Positions 1 to 4,067 of a stretch of DNA of 4,067 nt are shown one piece after another; within the stretch, counting starts at the first letter, position 1, and each line of letters opens with the position of its first letter. Where the stretch lies: the IMG/VR virus record IMGVR_UViG_2690316188_000007; one strand, written 5' to 3'. The stretch is from a virus. Taxonomy: Duplodnaviria; Heunggongvirae; Uroviricota; Caudoviricetes. Under the pieces are notes generated by a model that searched no databases, was not told where the DNA came from, and saw only the letters and a list, made by a program, of their open reading frames with translations. Position numbers and translations under genes: made by a program.

Positions 1-190
1 GGTCAAACACCCACGGTGCGCAGGACTCCCCGAACGTCGGGCTACCCGGTGCATCCACAATCCGCAGTTGTTTAAAAATCGCCAGTGCATGTGCAGCCTG
101 GTCCGGATAAATCGGAGCCGGAATAATCGACAGCCCCTTTTTCAGGCGCTCTGCCCAGTCCGGGCAGGCTGTGCTCCATACAGGTATCAT
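1..190 (-). CDS. Probable terminase large subunit, N-terminal fragment (continues beyond window start)
   Basis: Minus-strand ATG at 190-188 overlaps the TGA stop of the small-terminase ORF (ATGA overlap at 187-190). The frame is open for 63 codons to the window edge (MIPVWSTACPDWAERLKKGLSIIPAPIYPDQAAHALAIFKQLRIVDAPGSPTFGESCAPWVFD...). Assignment rests on synteny and coupling to TerS; too little sequence to see ATPase motifs. Confidence 0.6.
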   Translation of the reverse strand, partial: MIPVWSTACPDWAERLKKGLSIIPAPIYPDQAAHALAIFKQLRIVDAPGSPTFGESCAPWVFD

Positions 191-750
191 CCGTTGCCCT
201 CATTATCGTTATTCACCACCAGTCGGGGTGGCGGTGGCACCGCAAAACGGTTAGCCGCTTTTTTCGCGGCATCACCTTTTGCCGATTTTTTACCGGCATC
301 CCCTTTTTTATGGTGCGTGAACTGCGCCAGACGCCAGGCCGCATCCAGTGCCAGTTTCGGATCAATGCAGAGGTTTTCCACCAGGATCCGCCCCATGGCT
401 TTCACCGGATCGGGAAGACCATCCTCCATATATTCAATACCAGGAGACATCACCGCGGACGGTGGCATCTCCGGATTGTTTTCGTCCGGCTGTGGTATTG
501 CAGCCACCTCACGGCGACGGGGTTTATCCTCCTGCTCTGATTTTTTCTGCCGGTAAACAGGAACCTCATCCACCTCCACCGTCTCGCACTGTTTACGGGC
601 TATAAACGCGAGCACCTCCGGATCTTTTGCCAGCTGCGAGCCTTTAACCCTGGCTGTCTTCGCCGAATAACCGGCGGCAATGGCTGACGCTGTTTTGTTT
701 TTCCCGGACATGAGCGCCAGCGCAAATTTTCGTTTTTGCGTTGTCAGCAC
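187..750 (-). CDS. Phage terminase small subunit (HTH, Terminase_2-like)
   Basis: 187-aa ORF. GTG start at 750 is preceded by GGGAGGAGG; an in-frame ATG at 711 is an alternative start. N-terminal KRKFALALMSGKNKTASAIAAGYSAKTARVKGSQL fits the ..AGYS.KTA.. DNA-binding signature of this TerS family as I recall it. Lys/Ala/Pro-rich C-terminal tail. Stop overlaps the start of the downstream large-subunit ORF. Confidence 0.75.
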   Translation of the reverse strand: MLTTQKRKFALALMSGKNKTASAIAAGYSAKTARVKGSQLAKDPEVLAFIARKQCETVEVDEVPVYRQKKSEQEDKPRRREVAAIPQPDENNPEMPPSAVMSPGIEYMEDGLPDPVKAMGRILVENLCIDPKLALDAAWRLAQFTHHKKGDAGKKSAKGDAAKKAANRFAVPPPPRLVVNNDNEGNG

Positions 751-824
751 AGCCTCCTCCCGGGTCCAGAACGCACTCAGCCGGGTATGGTTCAGCCCAT
801 TTTTCCCGGCGTCTCATGCCGCAA

Positions 825-948
825 ATGTTAACTGCTGCCTGGTTAACATTTGCTGAAAAAGCCTGTTAACATTTTTTCCGCACAACAAACTGAATAATAA
901 AGATAAAAACCGCAAAAATGCCCGGGCAGCCAGTTAACATGTTAACTG
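825..948. repeat. Array of five GTTAACAT/ATGTTAAC 8-mers including an 18-bp perfect palindrome; candidate terminase-binding (cosB-like) or other protein-binding sites
   Basis: ATGTTAAC at 825-832, GTTAACAT at 842-849 (inverted pair with 9-bp spacer), GTTAACAT at 865-872, and overlapping GTTAACAT/ATGTTAAC at 933-946 forming the palindrome CAGTTAACATGTTAACTG (931-948). A-rich spacer 873-920. Located 75-200 bp upstream of the TerS start and downstream of the HNH gene. Confidence 0.45.
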
Positions 949-1024
949 CCCTGAAACGGGAATTTTTTCTCTGCGTGAGAGGGGGCGCGGTGTCCAAAGC
1001 GATCGTTTTTTACGCCGGATGATA

Positions 1025-1032
1025 CCCCCCCC
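1025..1032. repeat. C8 homopolymer tract (G8 on the coding strand) just downstream of the HNH stop
   Basis: cccccccc at 1025-1032 followed by gggttggg, 9 bp from the HNH stop codon (1041-1043). The existence is certain; the function is unknown. Confidence 0.9.
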
Positions 1033-1040
1033 GGGTTGGG

Positions 1041-1406
1041 TTACAGTCCGATGATGTCGTCCTCTCTGCCACTACCTCCGGACACCTCCGGCAGCGTCGG
1101 GTCCGGCATACCACTCGCCGCTTCACGAGCAGACTTTTGTCGATGGCATTCGGTACAGAGCGTCCAGAGATTCGTCTCCTCATTACCACCACCGAACTGA
1201 AGTGCAATTCGGTGATCGAGTTCACTGTCACAGAGGTCAACCACACGACCACAGAGACGGCACTGCCCGGCGTCCCTGAGCCAGATATGACGCTTGAGGG
1301 AAACACGTGCACTGCCACTGACACGACGCTGTTCACCCTTCAGAATATTCACCCGTCGGGTATTCAGTGTTTTGATTCTGCTCTGGAGTGTACGAAGCTC
1401 AGCCAT
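1041..1406 (-). CDS. HNH endonuclease (phage packaging-associated, HK97 gp74-like position)
   Basis: 121-aa ORF with GGGGA SD-like sequence 6 nt upstream of ATG 1406. Contains CRLCG...DHRIALQFGG...NLWTLCTECHRQK, i.e. paired CxxC zinc ligands plus a His-Asn-His catalytic core. Lies immediately upstream of the putative cos region and terminase genes. Confidence 0.85.
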   Translation of the reverse strand: MAELRTLQSRIKTLNTRRVNILKGEQRRVSGSARVSLKRHIWLRDAGQCRLCGRVVDLCDSELDHRIALQFGGGNEETNLWTLCTECHRQKSAREAASGMPDPTLPEVSGGSGREDDIIGL

Positions 1407-1447
1407 GTAAAATCCCCGTCATATGGCAATCAGTAAAGGAAATAAAT

Positions 1448-1648
1448 ATGTCATCGAAAAACCGTACCCGCAGAACCACAACCCGCAATATCCGTTTCCC
1501 CAATCACATAATTGAACAGATCAACATCGCCCTTGAGCATAAAGGGTCCGGTAACTTTTCAGCGTGGGTTATTGAAGCCTGCAGGAGAAGGCTGGCAACA
1601 GATGCAACGCATCTGCGCCCGGCCAGCATGACAAATAACGAGAAATGA
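1448..1648 (+). CDS. Small basic prophage protein, YlcI/DUF3950-like
   Basis: 66-aa ORF with AAAGGA SD 7 nt upstream of ATG 1448. MSSKNRTRRTTTRNIRFPNHIIEQINIALEHKGSGNFSAWVIEACRRRL closely resembles my recollection of E. coli DLP12 YlcI (DUF3950). The track ORF 1388..1648 begins at an upstream GTG without an SD, so it is trimmed to the ATG. Only substantial gene on the + strand, divergent from HNH. Confidence 0.6.
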   Translation: MSSKNRTRRTTTRNIRFPNHIIEQINIALEHKGSGNFSAWVIEACRRRLATDATHLRPASMTNNEK

Positions 1649-1846
1649 ACGTTCGGTTTCTTCCACCATCGCACCGGACAGGCGACTATGAGGGGACAAC
1701 GCCGCGCTCCGTTAACGCGGTAAACCCCGGTGTGTATCGTTTTTGATTATCCCCGCACACTCGCGCAGAGGAGTCTCCCTGTCGGGCTGCGGTCTCTGTT
1801 AATGCAGGAATACGGCGACAATACCGCGCATGGATAATAAGGTCGC

Positions 1847-2071
1847 TCAACACACTGGCTGTAATGCAGCGGATACCATGCGGCATTTAGCGGCATTCAT
1901 CGTACACTCCACGGTTAGCTCTTCATTCGTGGCATTCACCTGAAAGGTCCGGGAGTGTAATTGCGTACATTTACCACTGAACGAACCTTCAACAAGAACA
2001 CGACCACGCTGCAAAATACGGAACGGAATTGTTCCCTGAAAAGGTTCTACGGTTACCCGTAATTTCTTCAT
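1847..2071 (-). CDS. Hypothetical protein (74 aa), translationally coupled to Rz
   Basis: ATG at 2071-2069 overlaps the Rz stop TGA at 2070-2068 (ATGA), with GGAGGA 4 nt upstream inside the Rz 3' end. [45 protein letters not shown]...; no family recognised. Confidence 0.5.
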
Positions 2072-2562
2072 GTATCCTCCGGATAATAAAAAGCCAGCTT
2101 AGTGCACTGAGTGCGGATATATTCCTGCGCCCCTTCCAGCTGCTTCTGCATTGTCATCAACCGTTCTCTGAGGATGAAATAATCCCGTTCAGCGGTGTCT
2201 GCCAGTCGGGGGCCGGTTGCATTATCCACGCTGGAGGTGCCGGTGGCTTCACGCACGGTACCGGGGCAGGTGGCGTTGACCCGCAGGCGCTTACGACCAG
2301 CGGCAACATCAGCGCGCAGAGTTTCATTTTCAGCTCTCGCATCGGCTAATTCCTTCGTGTATCTGGCATCAAGCGCAGCGACATCTCGCTGGCGCTGCTG
2401 CATGTCAGTAATAGTGGCATTCGCCAGTTTCAGCTCACTGACTTTTTTATCGCGCTGCGCTTTGTAGGTGATGGCGTTATCGCGGTAATGATTCAGCCCC
2501 AGACTAAGCACACCACAGGCTACCAGCAGGACAATAATCACCACACACAGAACACGGTTCAT
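2068..2562 (-). CDS. Rz: Spanin inner-membrane subunit (i-spanin) Rz
   Basis: 164 aa from ATG 2562. N-terminal TMD then coiled-coil region; [55 protein letters not shown]...[24 protein letters not shown] aligns closely with lambda Rz as I recall it. The track ORF extends upstream to a GTG at 2646, but the lambda-like start is MNRVL at 2562. Confidence 0.9.
2157..2342 (-). CDS. Rz1: Spanin outer-membrane lipoprotein subunit (o-spanin) Rz1, embedded in the +1 frame of Rz
   Basis: 61-aa ORF wholly inside Rz in another frame. [61 protein letters not shown] has a lipobox (VSAC) and proline-rich mature region, closely matching lambda Rz1. Confidence 0.85.
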
Positions 2563-2563
2563 A

Positions 2564-2650
2564 TCACCACCAACGGATTGCCCAGACCAGAACAGCAATG
2601 GCCACAATACGAATGGCAAATGCCATTGCCCGAATAAGTTCAGCACTCAT
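2564..2650 (-). CDS. Small hydrophobic peptide, 28 aa (ORF-d), single predicted TMD
   Basis: ATG 2650; [28 protein letters not shown]; stop TGA ends 1 nt before the Rz ATG and its 3' end GGTGGTGA doubles as the Rz SD. Typical E. coli codons. Paralogous to ORF-c (shared RA[LM]AFAI[KR]xVA[VI] core, with synonymous codon differences). Confidence 0.45.
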
Positions 2651-2661
2651 CTTTTTAAAGT

Positions 2662-2784
2662 TCACGATTTCAGCGCAATGACCAGTTTTGCCAGCCCATA
2701 CAGCATCGGAGACACAGCAATACCAACAGCCACCCACTTAATAGCAAAAGCCAGCGCTCTGCTGATGTCATCAGTCACTGTCAC
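2662..2784 (-). CDS. Small hydrophobic peptide, 40 aa (ORF-c), putative GTG start overlapping the ORF-b stop
   Basis: GTG at 2784-2782 overlaps the ORF-b TGA at 2783-2781 (GTGA). (M)TVTDDISRALAFAIKWVAVGIAVSPMLYGLAKLVIALKS. This is the C-terminal part of track ORF 2662..2934, whose N-terminal part overlaps ORF-b in another frame and reads as non-protein-like. Paralogue of ORF-d. Confidence 0.45.
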   Translation of the reverse strand: MTVTDDISRALAFAIKWVAVGIAVSPMLYGLAKLVIALKS

Positions 2785-2912
2785 CCCAGCAGCCCCGACG
2801 AAGACAACATCACCCAGGCGAAGGACAGAAAAAGAGCAACCAGCATTAGTGAAAATGAAATACCGACAATCACACACAGGACCTTTGCCGGCGTTATGAG
2901 TTTGTCTGACAT
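2781..2912 (-). CDS. Small hydrophobic protein, 43 aa (ORF-b), single predicted TMD
   Basis: ATG 2912 with AAGGGG SD 5 nt upstream; MSDKLITPAKVLCVIVGISFSLMLVALFLSFAWVMLSSSGLLG; short polar N-terminus followed by a ~25-residue hydrophobic stretch. Starts 2 nt after the ORF-a stop. Confidence 0.5.
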   Translation of the reverse strand: MSDKLITPAKVLCVIVGISFSLMLVALFLSFAWVMLSSSGLLG

Positions 2913-2914
2913 AG

Positions 2915-3010
2915 CTACCCCTTAATTGCCACAATTAACTGGGATACTACCCATAAAAAAGGGATGCTCCAGACCAGCAAAAATTTCCAGTTTGGTAATT
3001 GACTAATCAT
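2915..3010 (-). CDS. Small hydrophobic peptide, 31 aa (ORF-a), single predicted TMD
   Basis: ATG 3010 with AGGGAG SD 9 nt upstream; MISQLPNWKFLLVWSIPFLWVVSQLIVAIKG. An in-frame TTG at 3049 preceded by GGGAGG would give 44 aa. The track ORF 2915..3127 extends through the terminator hairpin and is trimmed. AT-rich codon usage relative to neighbours. Confidence 0.45.
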   Translation of the reverse strand: MISQLPNWKFLLVWSIPFLWVVSQLIVAIKG

Positions 3011-3081
3011 GAGTCGCAACTCCCTAATCAGTTTGCTAAAATCAATCAAGGCAGCCTCCCATAGCTTACTGCCATAAAAAC

Positions 3082-3124
3082 AAAACCCCGCTTGCTGCCA
3101 ACAAACGGGGTTTTTACTTTTATT
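3082..3124. terminator. Bidirectional rho-independent terminator-like hairpin between the endolysin gene and the small-ORF cluster
   Basis: AAAACCCCG (3082-3090), 15-nt loop, CGGGG (3106-3110), then TTTTTACTTTTATT on the + strand; the complementary strand reads AAAAACCCCG...CGGGGTTTTGTTTTT. GC stem flanked by A and T runs on both sides. Confidence 0.6.
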
Positions 3125-3204
3125 CACTTACATTTTGCCAGTTCGCAGGATTTCGTGTTATCCATCCGCCTTGGCCAACGTCATTTATTAGCAAAATATT
3201 CTGC

Positions 3205-3738
3205 TTATCTGTCGATTCCCCAGCACGCCAGCGCGCTCTCCTGGTCACGACGGGATACCTGACCGTAACAGTTATTTGAGCGAATACGGCAGTCCCTGCC
3301 ACCGTCCTTAATCCACCAGCGAATCGCCTCACACGCTCCCCTGCGATCACCTGCATTAATTCGTTTATAAAACGTCGACGGAAAACACTTACCGGGGCCA
3401 ATGTTGTACGGACAGAATGACGCGATCCCCGCTTTCTGGGGTTCACTCAATGGCACTCTGATGTTTTTCTCCACCCATGCCAGCGCCTTATCACGCTCAA
3501 TGGCGTTAACCCGGTCGCATTTTTCCTTCGACAACTTCATGCCAGGAACGACAGGTTTGCCATCCACCAGGATGGCACCGCGGCAGATGGTCCAGATACC
3601 CGCGCCATCACGGTATGCCGTGGTGTGGTTACCTTCCTTTTCATCCAGAAACTGGTCGAGAATGTCAGGCGCAGGCGCACCAGCGGCAATCAGCGCCAGA
3701 ACGGCAGCCGACAGGCCGTATTTGATTTTGGTGTTCAT
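3205..3738 (-). CDS. Phage endolysin, GH24 (T4-lysozyme-like) with N-terminal signal-anchor/SAR-like segment
   Basis: 177-aa ORF from ATG 3738. N-terminal KIKYGLSAAVLALIAAGAPAP is an Ala/Gly-rich weakly hydrophobic segment. DEKEGNHTTAYRDGAGIWTICRG carries the Glu/Asp/Thr catalytic arrangement of T4-type lysozymes. Resembles lysozymes of E. coli lambdoid prophages. No SD before the ATG. Confidence 0.9.
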   Translation of the reverse strand: MNTKIKYGLSAAVLALIAAGAPAPDILDQFLDEKEGNHTTAYRDGAGIWTICRGAILVDGKPVVPGMKLSKEKCDRVNAIERDKALAWVEKNIRVPLSEPQKAGIASFCPYNIGPGKCFPSTFYKRINAGDRRGACEAIRWWIKDGGRDCRIRSNNCYGQVSRRDQESALACWGIDR

Positions 3739-3984
3739 GGATATTTATCAGGATTTATCGGTTTCTGCCCACGGACAGGTTTATCTGTTCCGGTCAGTGA
3801 CTTAAGGTTGTGATTCCGGAGGAGTCTTCAGAGAACCAGTAATTATTCCCGGTAGCTTTCCTTTGTAGGTTATCCATACATTCTGCGCCTCTAAAATTAC
3901 GGGGCGCTTTTCCGGCGACTGCTCATCCCCTTCACATAACCCGGCAGCAACATCCAGGAAGACCTGTCTGATGCTCCTTCGTAA

Positions 3985-4010
3985 GCGTCAACGGAGCACC
4001 GTATTGACGC
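3985..4010. promoter_or_regulatory. Perfect 7-bp inverted repeat GCGTCAA-N12-TTGACGC abutting the stop of the upstream gene
   Basis: gcgtcaa at 3985-3991 and ttgacgc at 4004-4010 are exact reverse complements with a 12-bp spacer; followed on the + strand by ttatttatt. Could be a protein-binding site or an RNA hairpin in the late leader. Confidence 0.4.
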
Positions 4011-4067
4011 TTATTTATTGGTGAGTACTACGTTCCATGGCAGGAGTTCATCAACTCGGTTGGAAGG
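4011..4067 (-). CDS. 3' end of an upstream minus-strand gene (possibly a late antiterminator Q-like gene, by position only)
   Basis: Only one minus-strand frame is open from the window edge: ...PSNRVDELLPWNVVLTNK, stop TAA at 4013-4011. Eighteen codons are too few for assignment. Confidence 0.3.
   Translation of the reverse strand, partial: PSNRVDELLPWNVVLTNK

Follow-up and report, generated by a model that had tools for sequence, protein, structure and literature searches.

The module that lambdoid phages use for lysis comprises four genes in the standard model (PMC2629481, PMC8136144), and a pinholin paired with a signal-arrest-release (SAR) endolysin has been predicted for almost all Shiga toxin (Stx) phages (PMC8136144). 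Here, a 4,067-nucleotide stretch of DNA from a virus of the class Caudoviricetes (IMG/VR record IMGVR_UViG_2690316188_000007; the whole of this stretch is referred to below as the window) was analysed, in which four small hydrophobic open reading frames (ORFs a to d) lie between the gene encoding the endolysin (R) and that encoding the spanin Rz. The window is part of the late region of a Stx-phage-like lambdoid prophage of Escherichia coli, with the genes of interest on the minus strand. A preliminary description had taken its lysis cassette to be non-canonical and devoid of a holin. This headline claim is not supported and appears to be an artefact; the secondary observation, that of the small ORFs, is correct and moderately interesting, and concerns terminator-led genes for micro-membrane proteins that are widespread in the lysis region of prophages of E. 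coli and Salmonella, Stx phages among them.

Small membrane proteins that are encoded in or beside the lysis genes, and that are dispensable for lysis, include LysA of P2, LydB of P1, RI of T4 and gp25 of Mu, accessory factors by which the function of the holin or of the SAR endolysin is tuned, and the small ORFs of the window are similar to them in position, size and dispensability. In phage P2, lysA sits between the endolysin and spanin genes. The gene for the Mu releasin gp25 is found within five genes downstream of that for the SAR endolysin, the release of which gp25 promotes; releasins with DUF2730 consist of an N-terminal transmembrane domain (TMD) and an acidic cytoplasmic domain of ∼70 aa (PMC9239132). 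The small ORFs can be regarded as positional analogues of P2 lysA and of the gene for Mu gp25, with no detectable sequence in common. Their products, of 28–60 aa and with one transmembrane (TM) helix, are much smaller than gp25 (99 aa) and LysA (four TMDs). They could not be assigned to the Mu-type releasins, as no match to DUF2730 was obtained in Pfam and the peptides are almost devoid of an extramembrane C-terminal part; nor was any family with a known role in lysis matched in Pfam or PHROG.

A second group of genes with which the small ORFs can be compared are the morons (PMC2629481), such as HK97 gene 15, lambda bor and lom, and P22 ant. These are small genes, often encoding membrane proteins, that are present or absent between conserved late genes in a mosaic manner, and the small ORFs show the same variation in presence and absence. 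However, classical morons carry a promoter of their own at the upstream end and a terminator at the downstream end, and lysogens express them. In the small ORFs the terminator is upstream, no promoter was found for them, and ORF-d abuts Rz.

Results

Position of the holin gene in relatives of the window

The observation that no hydrophobic ORF is present in the ∼270 bp 5′ of the endolysin gene was confirmed. This segment is made up of a 3′ fragment of ydfR (3980–3802) and of the end of the insertion sequence (IS) ISEc23 (4067–3981), so that it provides no evidence for the absence of a holin. The ydfR gene is cut at 3980/3981, at about codon 58, by the right end of ISEc23, which belongs to the IS66 family. 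The 87 bases of the IS contained in the window finish in its terminal repeat (…CGTTGACGCTTAC / …GACGCTTAC), and their counterpart in strain 21714 is annotated as ISEc23 transposase/IS66-like element. The point at which ISEc23 interrupts ydfR in the window differs from those in strains 21714, 20377 and 22919, and the best IS-bearing matches to the window, at 98.1% identity, have a different IS junction. The presence of ISEc23 in ydfR would reflect either an independent insertion or a deletion adjacent to the IS; the 8-bp target duplication expected for an ISEc23 insertion is predicted to be GAAGGAGC.

Relatives of the window that lack the IS, at 99.5–100% identity, carry a holin gene upstream of R. 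The sequence NZ_AP022177, which is 100% identical to window positions 3980–2500, encodes, in this order, a class II holin (71 aa), YdfR, the lysozyme, three small hypothetical proteins and a ‘lysis protein’ (Rz). The 71-aa holin of the relatives matches PF04971 (‘Bacteriophage P21 holin S’) at 9e-33, and the full-length YdfR of a relative matches PF07041 (DUF1327) at 6e-43. For a wider comparison, 169 loci were gathered around endolysin homologues. A holin gene was found upstream in nearly every E. coli-type locus that reaches far enough in this direction, usually with ydfR or another small gene between it and R; the order holin-ydfR-R was seen across ∼100 loci, and the Qin prophage of strain K-12 shows the same order (essQ-ydfR-rrrQ-rzpQ). 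A canonical holin just past the window, a situation that the preliminary description had itself envisaged as contradicting its proposal, is therefore what the relatives contain, while in this genome the window stops inside the IS.

The apparent loss of the holin is most simply read as an effect of the edge of the window together with the IS. In this genome the holin gene may lie on the far side of ISEc23, beyond the window, which ends inside the IS; its IS junction is unlike that of the IS-bearing strains found. In practical terms, the edge of a window or the insertion of an IS can mimic the absence of a holin.

Endolysin, spanins and class of the cassette

The endolysin is related to the SAR lysozyme of phage 21, the structure of which has been solved (3HDE/3HDF), and to RrrD (4ZPU). 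Its N-terminus (MNTKIKYGLSAAVLALIAAGAPAP) is basic, with two Lys residues, and continues into a weakly hydrophobic segment rich in Ala, Gly and Leu; the translated sequence shows the E-x8-D-x5-T motif of a T4-lysozyme-like catalytic triad. The protein is assigned to the SAR type, and its release from the membrane is predicted. The spanin is of the two-component kind, with Rz1 embedded in Rz in another frame.

Judged from its genes and from those of its relatives, the cassette appears to be an ordinary one of the phage 21 type (pinholin S, ydfR, SAR endolysin R, and Rz/Rz1), in which no holin is seen within the window itself. It shares with the cassettes of phage 21, the Stx phages and Qin an R protein related to R21 and RrrD and the usual location of Rz1 within Rz; its relatives have a PF04971 holin, with ydfR between S and R as in Qin. 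It differs from the Qin and phage-21-like cassettes in two respects. In these, R is joined directly to Rz, whereas in the window both genes are separated by 642 bp containing a terminator and four micro-ORFs. In addition, ydfR of the window is split by the IS.

The small ORFs and their families

Four consecutive hydrophobic ORFs had been reported after the endolysin gene, at 3010–2915 (31 aa), 2912–2781 (43 aa), 2784–2662 (40 aa, GTG start) and 2650–2564 (28 aa), and all four are present. Their junctions are also as reported: ORF-a and ORF-b are separated by 2 nt, ORF-b and ORF-c overlap in GTGA, and 1 nt lies between the stop codon of ORF-d and the ATG of Rz. None of the four products has a charged C-terminal tail, their ends being …AIKG, …SSSGLLG, …ALKS and …AIRWW. 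The list has to be amended in three points: ORF-a probably starts at the TTG at 3049, which gives a product of 44 aa; ORF-c and ORF-d are paralogues; and a terminator preceding the four ORFs had been overlooked. When segments running from stop to stop with a minimum of 28 codons were taken from all six frames (95 in total) and ranked by hydrophobicity, the top seven were all located on the minus strand and included the TMD of Rz and ORFs b, d, a and c. This clustering of hydrophobic ORFs is not due to chance. The hydropathy maxima of ORFs a to d were 1.9–2.9 over 19 residues.

All four ORFs match PHROG families, every one of them of unknown function, and the RefSeq pipeline (PGAP) already annotates three of the four as hypothetical proteins (WP_001280933 for ORF-b, WP_032140280 for ORF-d, and WP_042004856). 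Scans of Pfam, NCBIfam and PADLOC with all the peptides rendered no significant match, and those of Pfam, NCBIfam and PHROG rendered no significant match of ORFs a to d to a holin family. The lone match bearing a holin annotation was marginal (phrog_526, E 0.036) and was obtained with an unrelated peptide from another locus. The position of ORFs a to d beside the endolysin gene and the TM domain in a small protein are features of holins; the charged tail and the similarity to a holin family are not found.

ORF-a, of family A, can be read in two forms. The long form starts at TTG 3049, 5 nt after the Shine–Dalgarno (SD) sequence GGGAGG (3060–3055), and the short form at ATG 3010. The 44-aa form matched phrog_6632 at 1.4e-13 over positions 1–43 of 45, as compared with 6e-5 for the 31-aa form. 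Family A homologues of 44–45 aa in Citrobacter, Enterobacter and Klebsiella start with MIDFSKLIRELR and have an ATG at the position of the TTG, and longer annotated homologues with the MIDFSKLIRELR motif are present in Salmonella and Providencia. The most likely start of ORF-a is the TTG at 3049, 13 codons upstream of the ATG. In an AlphaFold2 model, ORF-a forms a helix at residues 4–16 and a TM helix at residues 21–43, with a predicted local distance difference test score (pLDDT) of ∼80. For ORF-b, of family B, 101 clusters of homologues were found, all from E. coli or Shigella and all named hypothetical.

ORF-c and ORF-d belong to a common family, C/D. The PGAP version of ORF-c has 51 aa and starts at 2817, the GTG start in the window being the one that overlaps the stop codon of ORF-b; homologues occur in E. 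coli and Salmonella. Fuller members of the family, of 48–60 aa, read M(S/E/R)KYKRILLRLT-MKNGLELKAPVTDDISRA and then continue as a hydrophobic helix. One set of alternative N-terminal variants precedes the C-termini of both the C and the D type, and intermediates occur; ORF-c and ORF-d are paralogues, both being N-terminally shortened forms of the 48–60 aa family. The AlphaFold2 model of a 60-aa relative of ORF-c contains a helix at residues 3–16 and a long helix at residues 22–59 (pLDDT ∼78). Full-length A and C/D peptides are predicted to consist of a short amphipathic or basic N-terminal helix and of one TM helix. A search with the C/D family profile against 1.8 billion cluster representatives rendered only 20 clusters, all of them C/D variants, with no link to a known family. 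D-type proteins end in …IRWW because the stop codon of their gene sits inside the ribosome-binding region of the next gene, which for ORF-d is Rz (GGTGGTGAtATG).

Selection on the coding sequences

The ratio of non-synonymous to synonymous differences per site (pN/pS) was obtained by adding up pairwise comparisons among a few related sequences, and its values are thus indications; those for family A came from six diverse loci. The ratio in the annotated frame was 0.09 for the core of family C (0.85 and 5.6 in the other frames), 0.44 for family B (0.65 and 1.48), 0.36 for family D (0.65 and 1.67), and 0.25 for codons 14–27 of family A (0.43 and 2.23). In the C-terminal half of the family A helix it was 0.61 (0.90 and 1.69). 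The ORFs are regarded as real genes and show purifying selection, with values of 0.09–0.44. The small ORFs are kept in related prophages, the opposite of the lack of conservation contemplated in the preliminary description. Family A is conserved across six genera, and members of family C were also found in phage isolates grown on E. coli C and K-12.

The 13 codons with which family A begins (3049–3011) are peculiar in that differences at synonymous sites are four-fold fewer there than in the remainder of the gene (pS 0.195, versus 0.70–0.77 downstream). This low value points to a constraint at the nucleotide level, for example that of an initiation region for the internal Met14. Conservation of the N-terminus purely as protein was rejected as the sole reason, since the synonymous sites are also unusually conserved. 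Both Met1 and Met14 are invariant in the family A loci L096, L178, L181, L182 and L183, each preceded by an SD-like sequence, and the long C/D forms have the same layout (a start codon, ∼12 basic codons, an SD-like GAGG and an internal Met). The layout of families A and C/D suggests two translation starts or an RNA element.

A terminator precedes the small ORFs

A strong intrinsic terminator is present between R and ORF-a. Its hairpin has a predicted free energy of ∼–21 kcal/mol, with a z-score of –4.55 in an 86-nt context, and lies 32 nt from the TTG of ORF-a. In each of the contexts examined, the first small ORF was preceded, at a distance of 25–35 nt, by a hairpin with the same shape and a different stem sequence; when 13 contexts were compared, four of the 10 pairs kept pairing through two-sided changes. 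The terminator belongs with the small-ORF module.

A promoter scan of positions 1800–4067 detected no σ70-like site on the minus strand. The sole site found in this region, where 2.3 are expected by chance, is on the plus strand at 2906–2935, antisense to the junction between ORF-a and ORF-b and directed at the hairpin, which is flanked by runs of A and of T, one at each side. In lambda, RNA polymerase modified by Q reads through intrinsic terminators. Since no promoter was found, the terminator lies upstream and the spacing to Rz is tight, expression of the small ORFs is probably confined to the late transcript that Q antiterminates, and they would be silent in the lysogen.

The spacer between the R stop codon and the terminator could be aligned between E. 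coli and Salmonella loci, and contains the imperfect palindrome GGATAACAC(G/A)AAATCC. A small RNA was considered for it in view of this conservation. A scan of the whole window against Rfam at E ≤ 1 gave no match, the spacer (3115–3204) included, and no promoter match was obtained in the spacer; its conservation is simply recorded here. A TTG-initiated ORF of 24 codons that overlaps the spacer looks like a by-product of the conservation of the DNA.

Content of the R-Rz interval in related loci

The endolysin gene and parts of the R-Rz interval are common to Stx-converting phages. Of 5,426 complete genomes of E. coli, >2,000 carry a match to the sequence of the interval. Shuffled combinations of the small ORFs are found in hundreds of prophages of E. 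coli, and also in isolated phages. Among the loci in which both R and Rz were found, the gap between them spans 0 to ∼1000 bp and falls into >10 classes of content. The arrangement a-b-c-d (642 bp) is present in 26 loci; a divergent A-type ORF alone, ending in IRWW (298 bp), in 23; c-b, in reverse order (∼490 bp), in 22; ant plus b (∼990 bp), as in VT2-Sakai, in five; and d alone (∼336 bp) in four. A few loci contain a-b or c-d, with various lengths. In ∼12 loci, mostly from other species or genera, the gap is empty (0–30 bp) and R abuts Rz. Given the many relatives in which R abuts Rz, the small-ORF genes are accessory, and they are exchanged as modules. Qin of K-12, which was inspected for a named small homologue, has no R-Rz gap. 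A second scan of viral contigs with the family A alignment did not widen the diversity, the copies returned being all near-identical and from E. coli.

The homologue in phage VT2-Sakai (NC_000902; locus L003, 2343–2492) belongs to family B, is 65% identical and lies between ant and Rz. This copy has ATA in place of the usual ATG, with a start further upstream, and is unannotated in the RefSeq record of this Stx2 phage.

Eight independent contexts of the small ORFs were recognised. In five of them the small ORFs come directly after an endolysin gene, mostly upstream of spanin genes. One is that of the SAR lysozyme in E. coli; in the other four, the hairpin is combined with an ORF of family A, C or D. 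Salmonella has a different PF00959 lysozyme that is paired with an HP1-type holin, and Enterobacter has a GH19 endolysin; a further context has a Peptidase_M15_4 endolysin and a recurring A-B pair. In E. coli A41, the endolysin belongs to GH108, and the gene after the D-type ORF encodes a small lipoprotein. The latter locus (L177, 1948–2250) also has two holin genes. Its D-type ORF ends in …RWW TGA T ATG, and the gene that follows encodes, in place of Rz, a 60-aa lipoprotein (lipobox LLVGC) that may be spanin-like or an exclusion lipoprotein.

A fifth family of small peptides, of ∼33 aa and with a GWGWF motif (e.g. MNPSCICFIVAGILACLGMSGWGWFLFVGVILL), was observed in Enterobacter, Kluyvera, Citrobacter, Trabulsiella, Morganella and Salmonella (L057 3034–3135, L062 3016–3117 and L075 3007–3111; also L021, L030, L077, L078, L080 and L173). 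The corresponding ORF overlaps the stop codon of the endolysin gene and, at several loci, also the start of Rz; its pN/pS is 0.34. The only family match, for the Morganella form, was to phrog_14810, of unknown function. In locus L173 the GWGWF peptide is encoded upstream of a terminator and a family C gene.

Features of the window and its relatives

The features of the lysis region are collected in Table 1. Prophages in several chromosomes of E. coli share 99.5–100% identity with the DNA of the window, and for one of the enteropathogenic E. coli strain E2348/69 the identity is 98.7%.

Table 1. Lysis-region features of the 4,067-nucleotide window, given from high to low coordinates, i.e. in the order of the minus strand
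Feature	Coordinates	Strand	Match or basis
ISEc23, right end	3981..4067	-	98.9% identity to ISEc23 end of strain 21714 (L002 3001–3087)
ydfR (DUF1327), 3′ fragment, ∼codons 58–116	3802..3980	-	collinear with YdfR of L001; phrog_406 2.5e-35
Endolysin R, SAR-type, 177 aa	3205..3738	-	PF00959 1.3e-23
Conserved non-coding spacer, 3′ of R stop	3115..3204	-	E. coli/Salmonella alignment
Intrinsic terminator, 15-bp stem (3114–3082) and U-rich tract	3072..3114	-	terminator scan
ORF-a, family A (phrog_6632)	2915..3049	-	phrog_6632 1.4e-13 (44-aa form)
ORF-b, family B (phrog_4906), 43 aa, single TM	2781..2912	-	phrog_4906 5e-21
ORF-c, family C/D (phrog_1115/3246/4493), 40 aa, GTG start	2662..2784	-	phrog_1115 6e-25
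ORF-d, paralogue of ORF-c, 28 aa	2564..2650	-	phrog_4493 4e-6
Rz, i-spanin, 164 aa	2068..2562	-	PF03245 4e-51
Rz1, o-spanin lipoprotein, inside Rz, +1 frame	2157..2342	-	PF06085 1.7e-21

Downstream of Rz, a 74-aa ORF (1847–2071, minus strand), the ATG of which overlaps the Rz stop codon (ATGA), gave a match at 2.7e-28 to phrog_2571, a family of unknown function; in relatives its product is annotated as a hypothetical protein. The window also holds the gene for the small terminase subunit and the beginning of that for the large one. A gene for an HNH endonuclease (1406–1041) lies directly upstream of these terminase genes, and at 1448–1648 the opposite strand carries a gene of the YlcI/YnfO (DUF3950) kind; HK97-like packaging modules typically have this layout (window 187–1648).

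Discussion

The explanation that best accounts for the observations as a whole, to which we would give a probability of about 0.45, is the following. The cassette would be an ordinary one of the phage 21 type in which ISEc23 has inserted into ydfR, the holin being hidden from view as the window ends inside the IS. The R-Rz junction is a widespread mosaic slot occupied by a strong terminator and by one to four micro-ORFs from families A, B and C/D. Ordinary RNA polymerase would halt at the hairpin, leaving the peptides silent in the lysogen, while polymerase modified by Q would pass the terminator, so that the peptides would be made together with Rz, late, as lysis is prepared. Once inserted into the inner membrane, late in the cycle, they would tune a step of lysis, be it the triggering of the pinholin, SAR-endolysin release or the action of the spanin. 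The proposal that the peptides act in the inner membrane on a lysis step is tentative, at slightly less than even odds, and is made because the unit sits so often between endolysin and spanin genes.

Several observations weigh against this explanation. The homologues of the small ORFs in databases are all named ‘hypothetical’. Although frequent, the link with lysis cassettes is not exclusive: in Citrobacter (L181) a family A unit lies amid tail genes, in Klebsiella grimontii (L182) another belongs to a baseplate cluster, and a prophage remnant of Salmonella that has no lysis genes close by carries a family C pair. The small ORFs are missing from K-12 Qin and from many other loci, and are hence dispensable. 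Some copies are broken by stop codons or frameshifts, as is expected in decaying prophages, and ORF-c and ORF-d of the window are themselves shortened derivatives of longer genes. Finally, the pN/pS values do not amount to independent tests. An accessory module for lysis timing, comparable to P2 lysA, and an unrelated module of small membrane peptides, both of which the preliminary description had mentioned, are each consistent with the data.

The second of these possibilities, the main rival, would be that the portable unit of terminator and micro-ORFs is late-expressed cargo with another job at the membrane, for which the R-Rz junction is just a permissive site. Candidate jobs are the blocking of superinfection or of re-adsorption of the progeny, interference with host membrane proteins, or that of selfish toxic peptides. 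We regard this as rather unlikely, although it accounts well for the units amid tail and baseplate genes and for the Salmonella locus without lysis genes, and it agrees with the occupation of the same slot by the unrelated ant gene in Stx phages, with the free variation in presence, order and number of the ORFs, and with the fact that the hairpin travels with them. Against it, five of the eight independent contexts lie directly after an endolysin gene, most of them upstream of spanin genes; no PADLOC defence model was matched; and exclusion genes are usually expressed in the lysogen, while the small ORFs are located behind a terminator and no promoter was found for them.

It is improbable that the small ORFs are merely recombination scars of a hypervariable junction, with no function as proteins and with frames that stay open only to bring ribosomes to the Rz start through translational coupling. 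In favour of this reading, the last ORF always ends a few nucleotides from the ATG of Rz, the …RWW end of ORF-d results from a stop codon in the Rz SD region, ORF-c and ORF-d are shortened, frameshifted, stop-containing and alternative-frame variants occur, and the low pS of the first 13 codons of family A indicates a constraint on nucleotides rather than on protein. Against it, the pN/pS values of 0.09 (C core) and 0.25 (codons 14–27 of A) are each below those of the alternative frames, amino-acid motifs are kept across genera despite divergence of the DNA, and the same families are found where no Rz follows.

The suggestion that the small ORFs are a relocated holin/antiholin set, or holins of a new class that would trigger the SAR endolysin in a cassette lacking a canonical holin, is unnecessary and largely refuted by synteny, and we consider it highly improbable. 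The window contains no holin, the peptides are small, membrane-spanning and encoded near the endolysin, and the two in-frame starts of A and C/D, each with an SD-like sequence, formally recall the dual-start motifs of holins. Yet a phage-21-type holin is encoded upstream in the 100%-identical relatives and in nearly all related loci that reach far enough, the small ORFs lack both a significant holin family match and the charged C-terminal tail, and they are absent from many relatives with the same S, R and Rz. Just as improbable is a type I toxin-antitoxin-like system, in which a hydrophobic toxin would be repressed by a plus-strand antisense RNA running from the promoter-like site at 2906–2935 through ORF-a and ending at the hairpin, the A-run and T-run flanks of which could terminate transcription in both directions: a single promoter-like site is fewer than chance predicts, this site spans the a-b junction, which the other arrangements lack, and no Rfam family, nor any toxin family in Pfam or NCBIfam, was matched.

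The favoured explanation, a terminator-led slot whose peptides tune lysis late, can be taken a step further. Families A, B and C/D, and perhaps the GWGWF peptides, might constitute an unrecognised class of portable lysis regulators, namely tiny one-helix membrane proteins gated by a terminator that only antiterminated late transcription would pass. Two starts may give rise to a long and a short form of the A and C/D peptides, and the regulators would plug in at endolysin-spanin junctions beside at least four unrelated types of endolysin and set the timing of triggering or release. This extension is speculative and we consider it doubtful.

The ORF families are already catalogued, and the novelty lies in describing them as a single recurrent module; the architecture that they share, their paralogy and the upstream terminator are not recorded in the PHROG and RefSeq entries returned, and no paper dealing with small ORFs in the R-Rz interval came up in a literature search. 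The timing of lysis determines the burst size of a phage and, in Shiga toxin phages, also the moment at which the toxin is released. If the small ORFs tune lysis, they represent a missing layer of control, one that is easily testable; if they belong to a class of portable regulators, the timing of toxin release by Stx phages would also be affected. Should their role lie elsewhere, an upstream terminator followed by a micro-ORF would still be an unusual way to confine a gene to antiterminated transcription.

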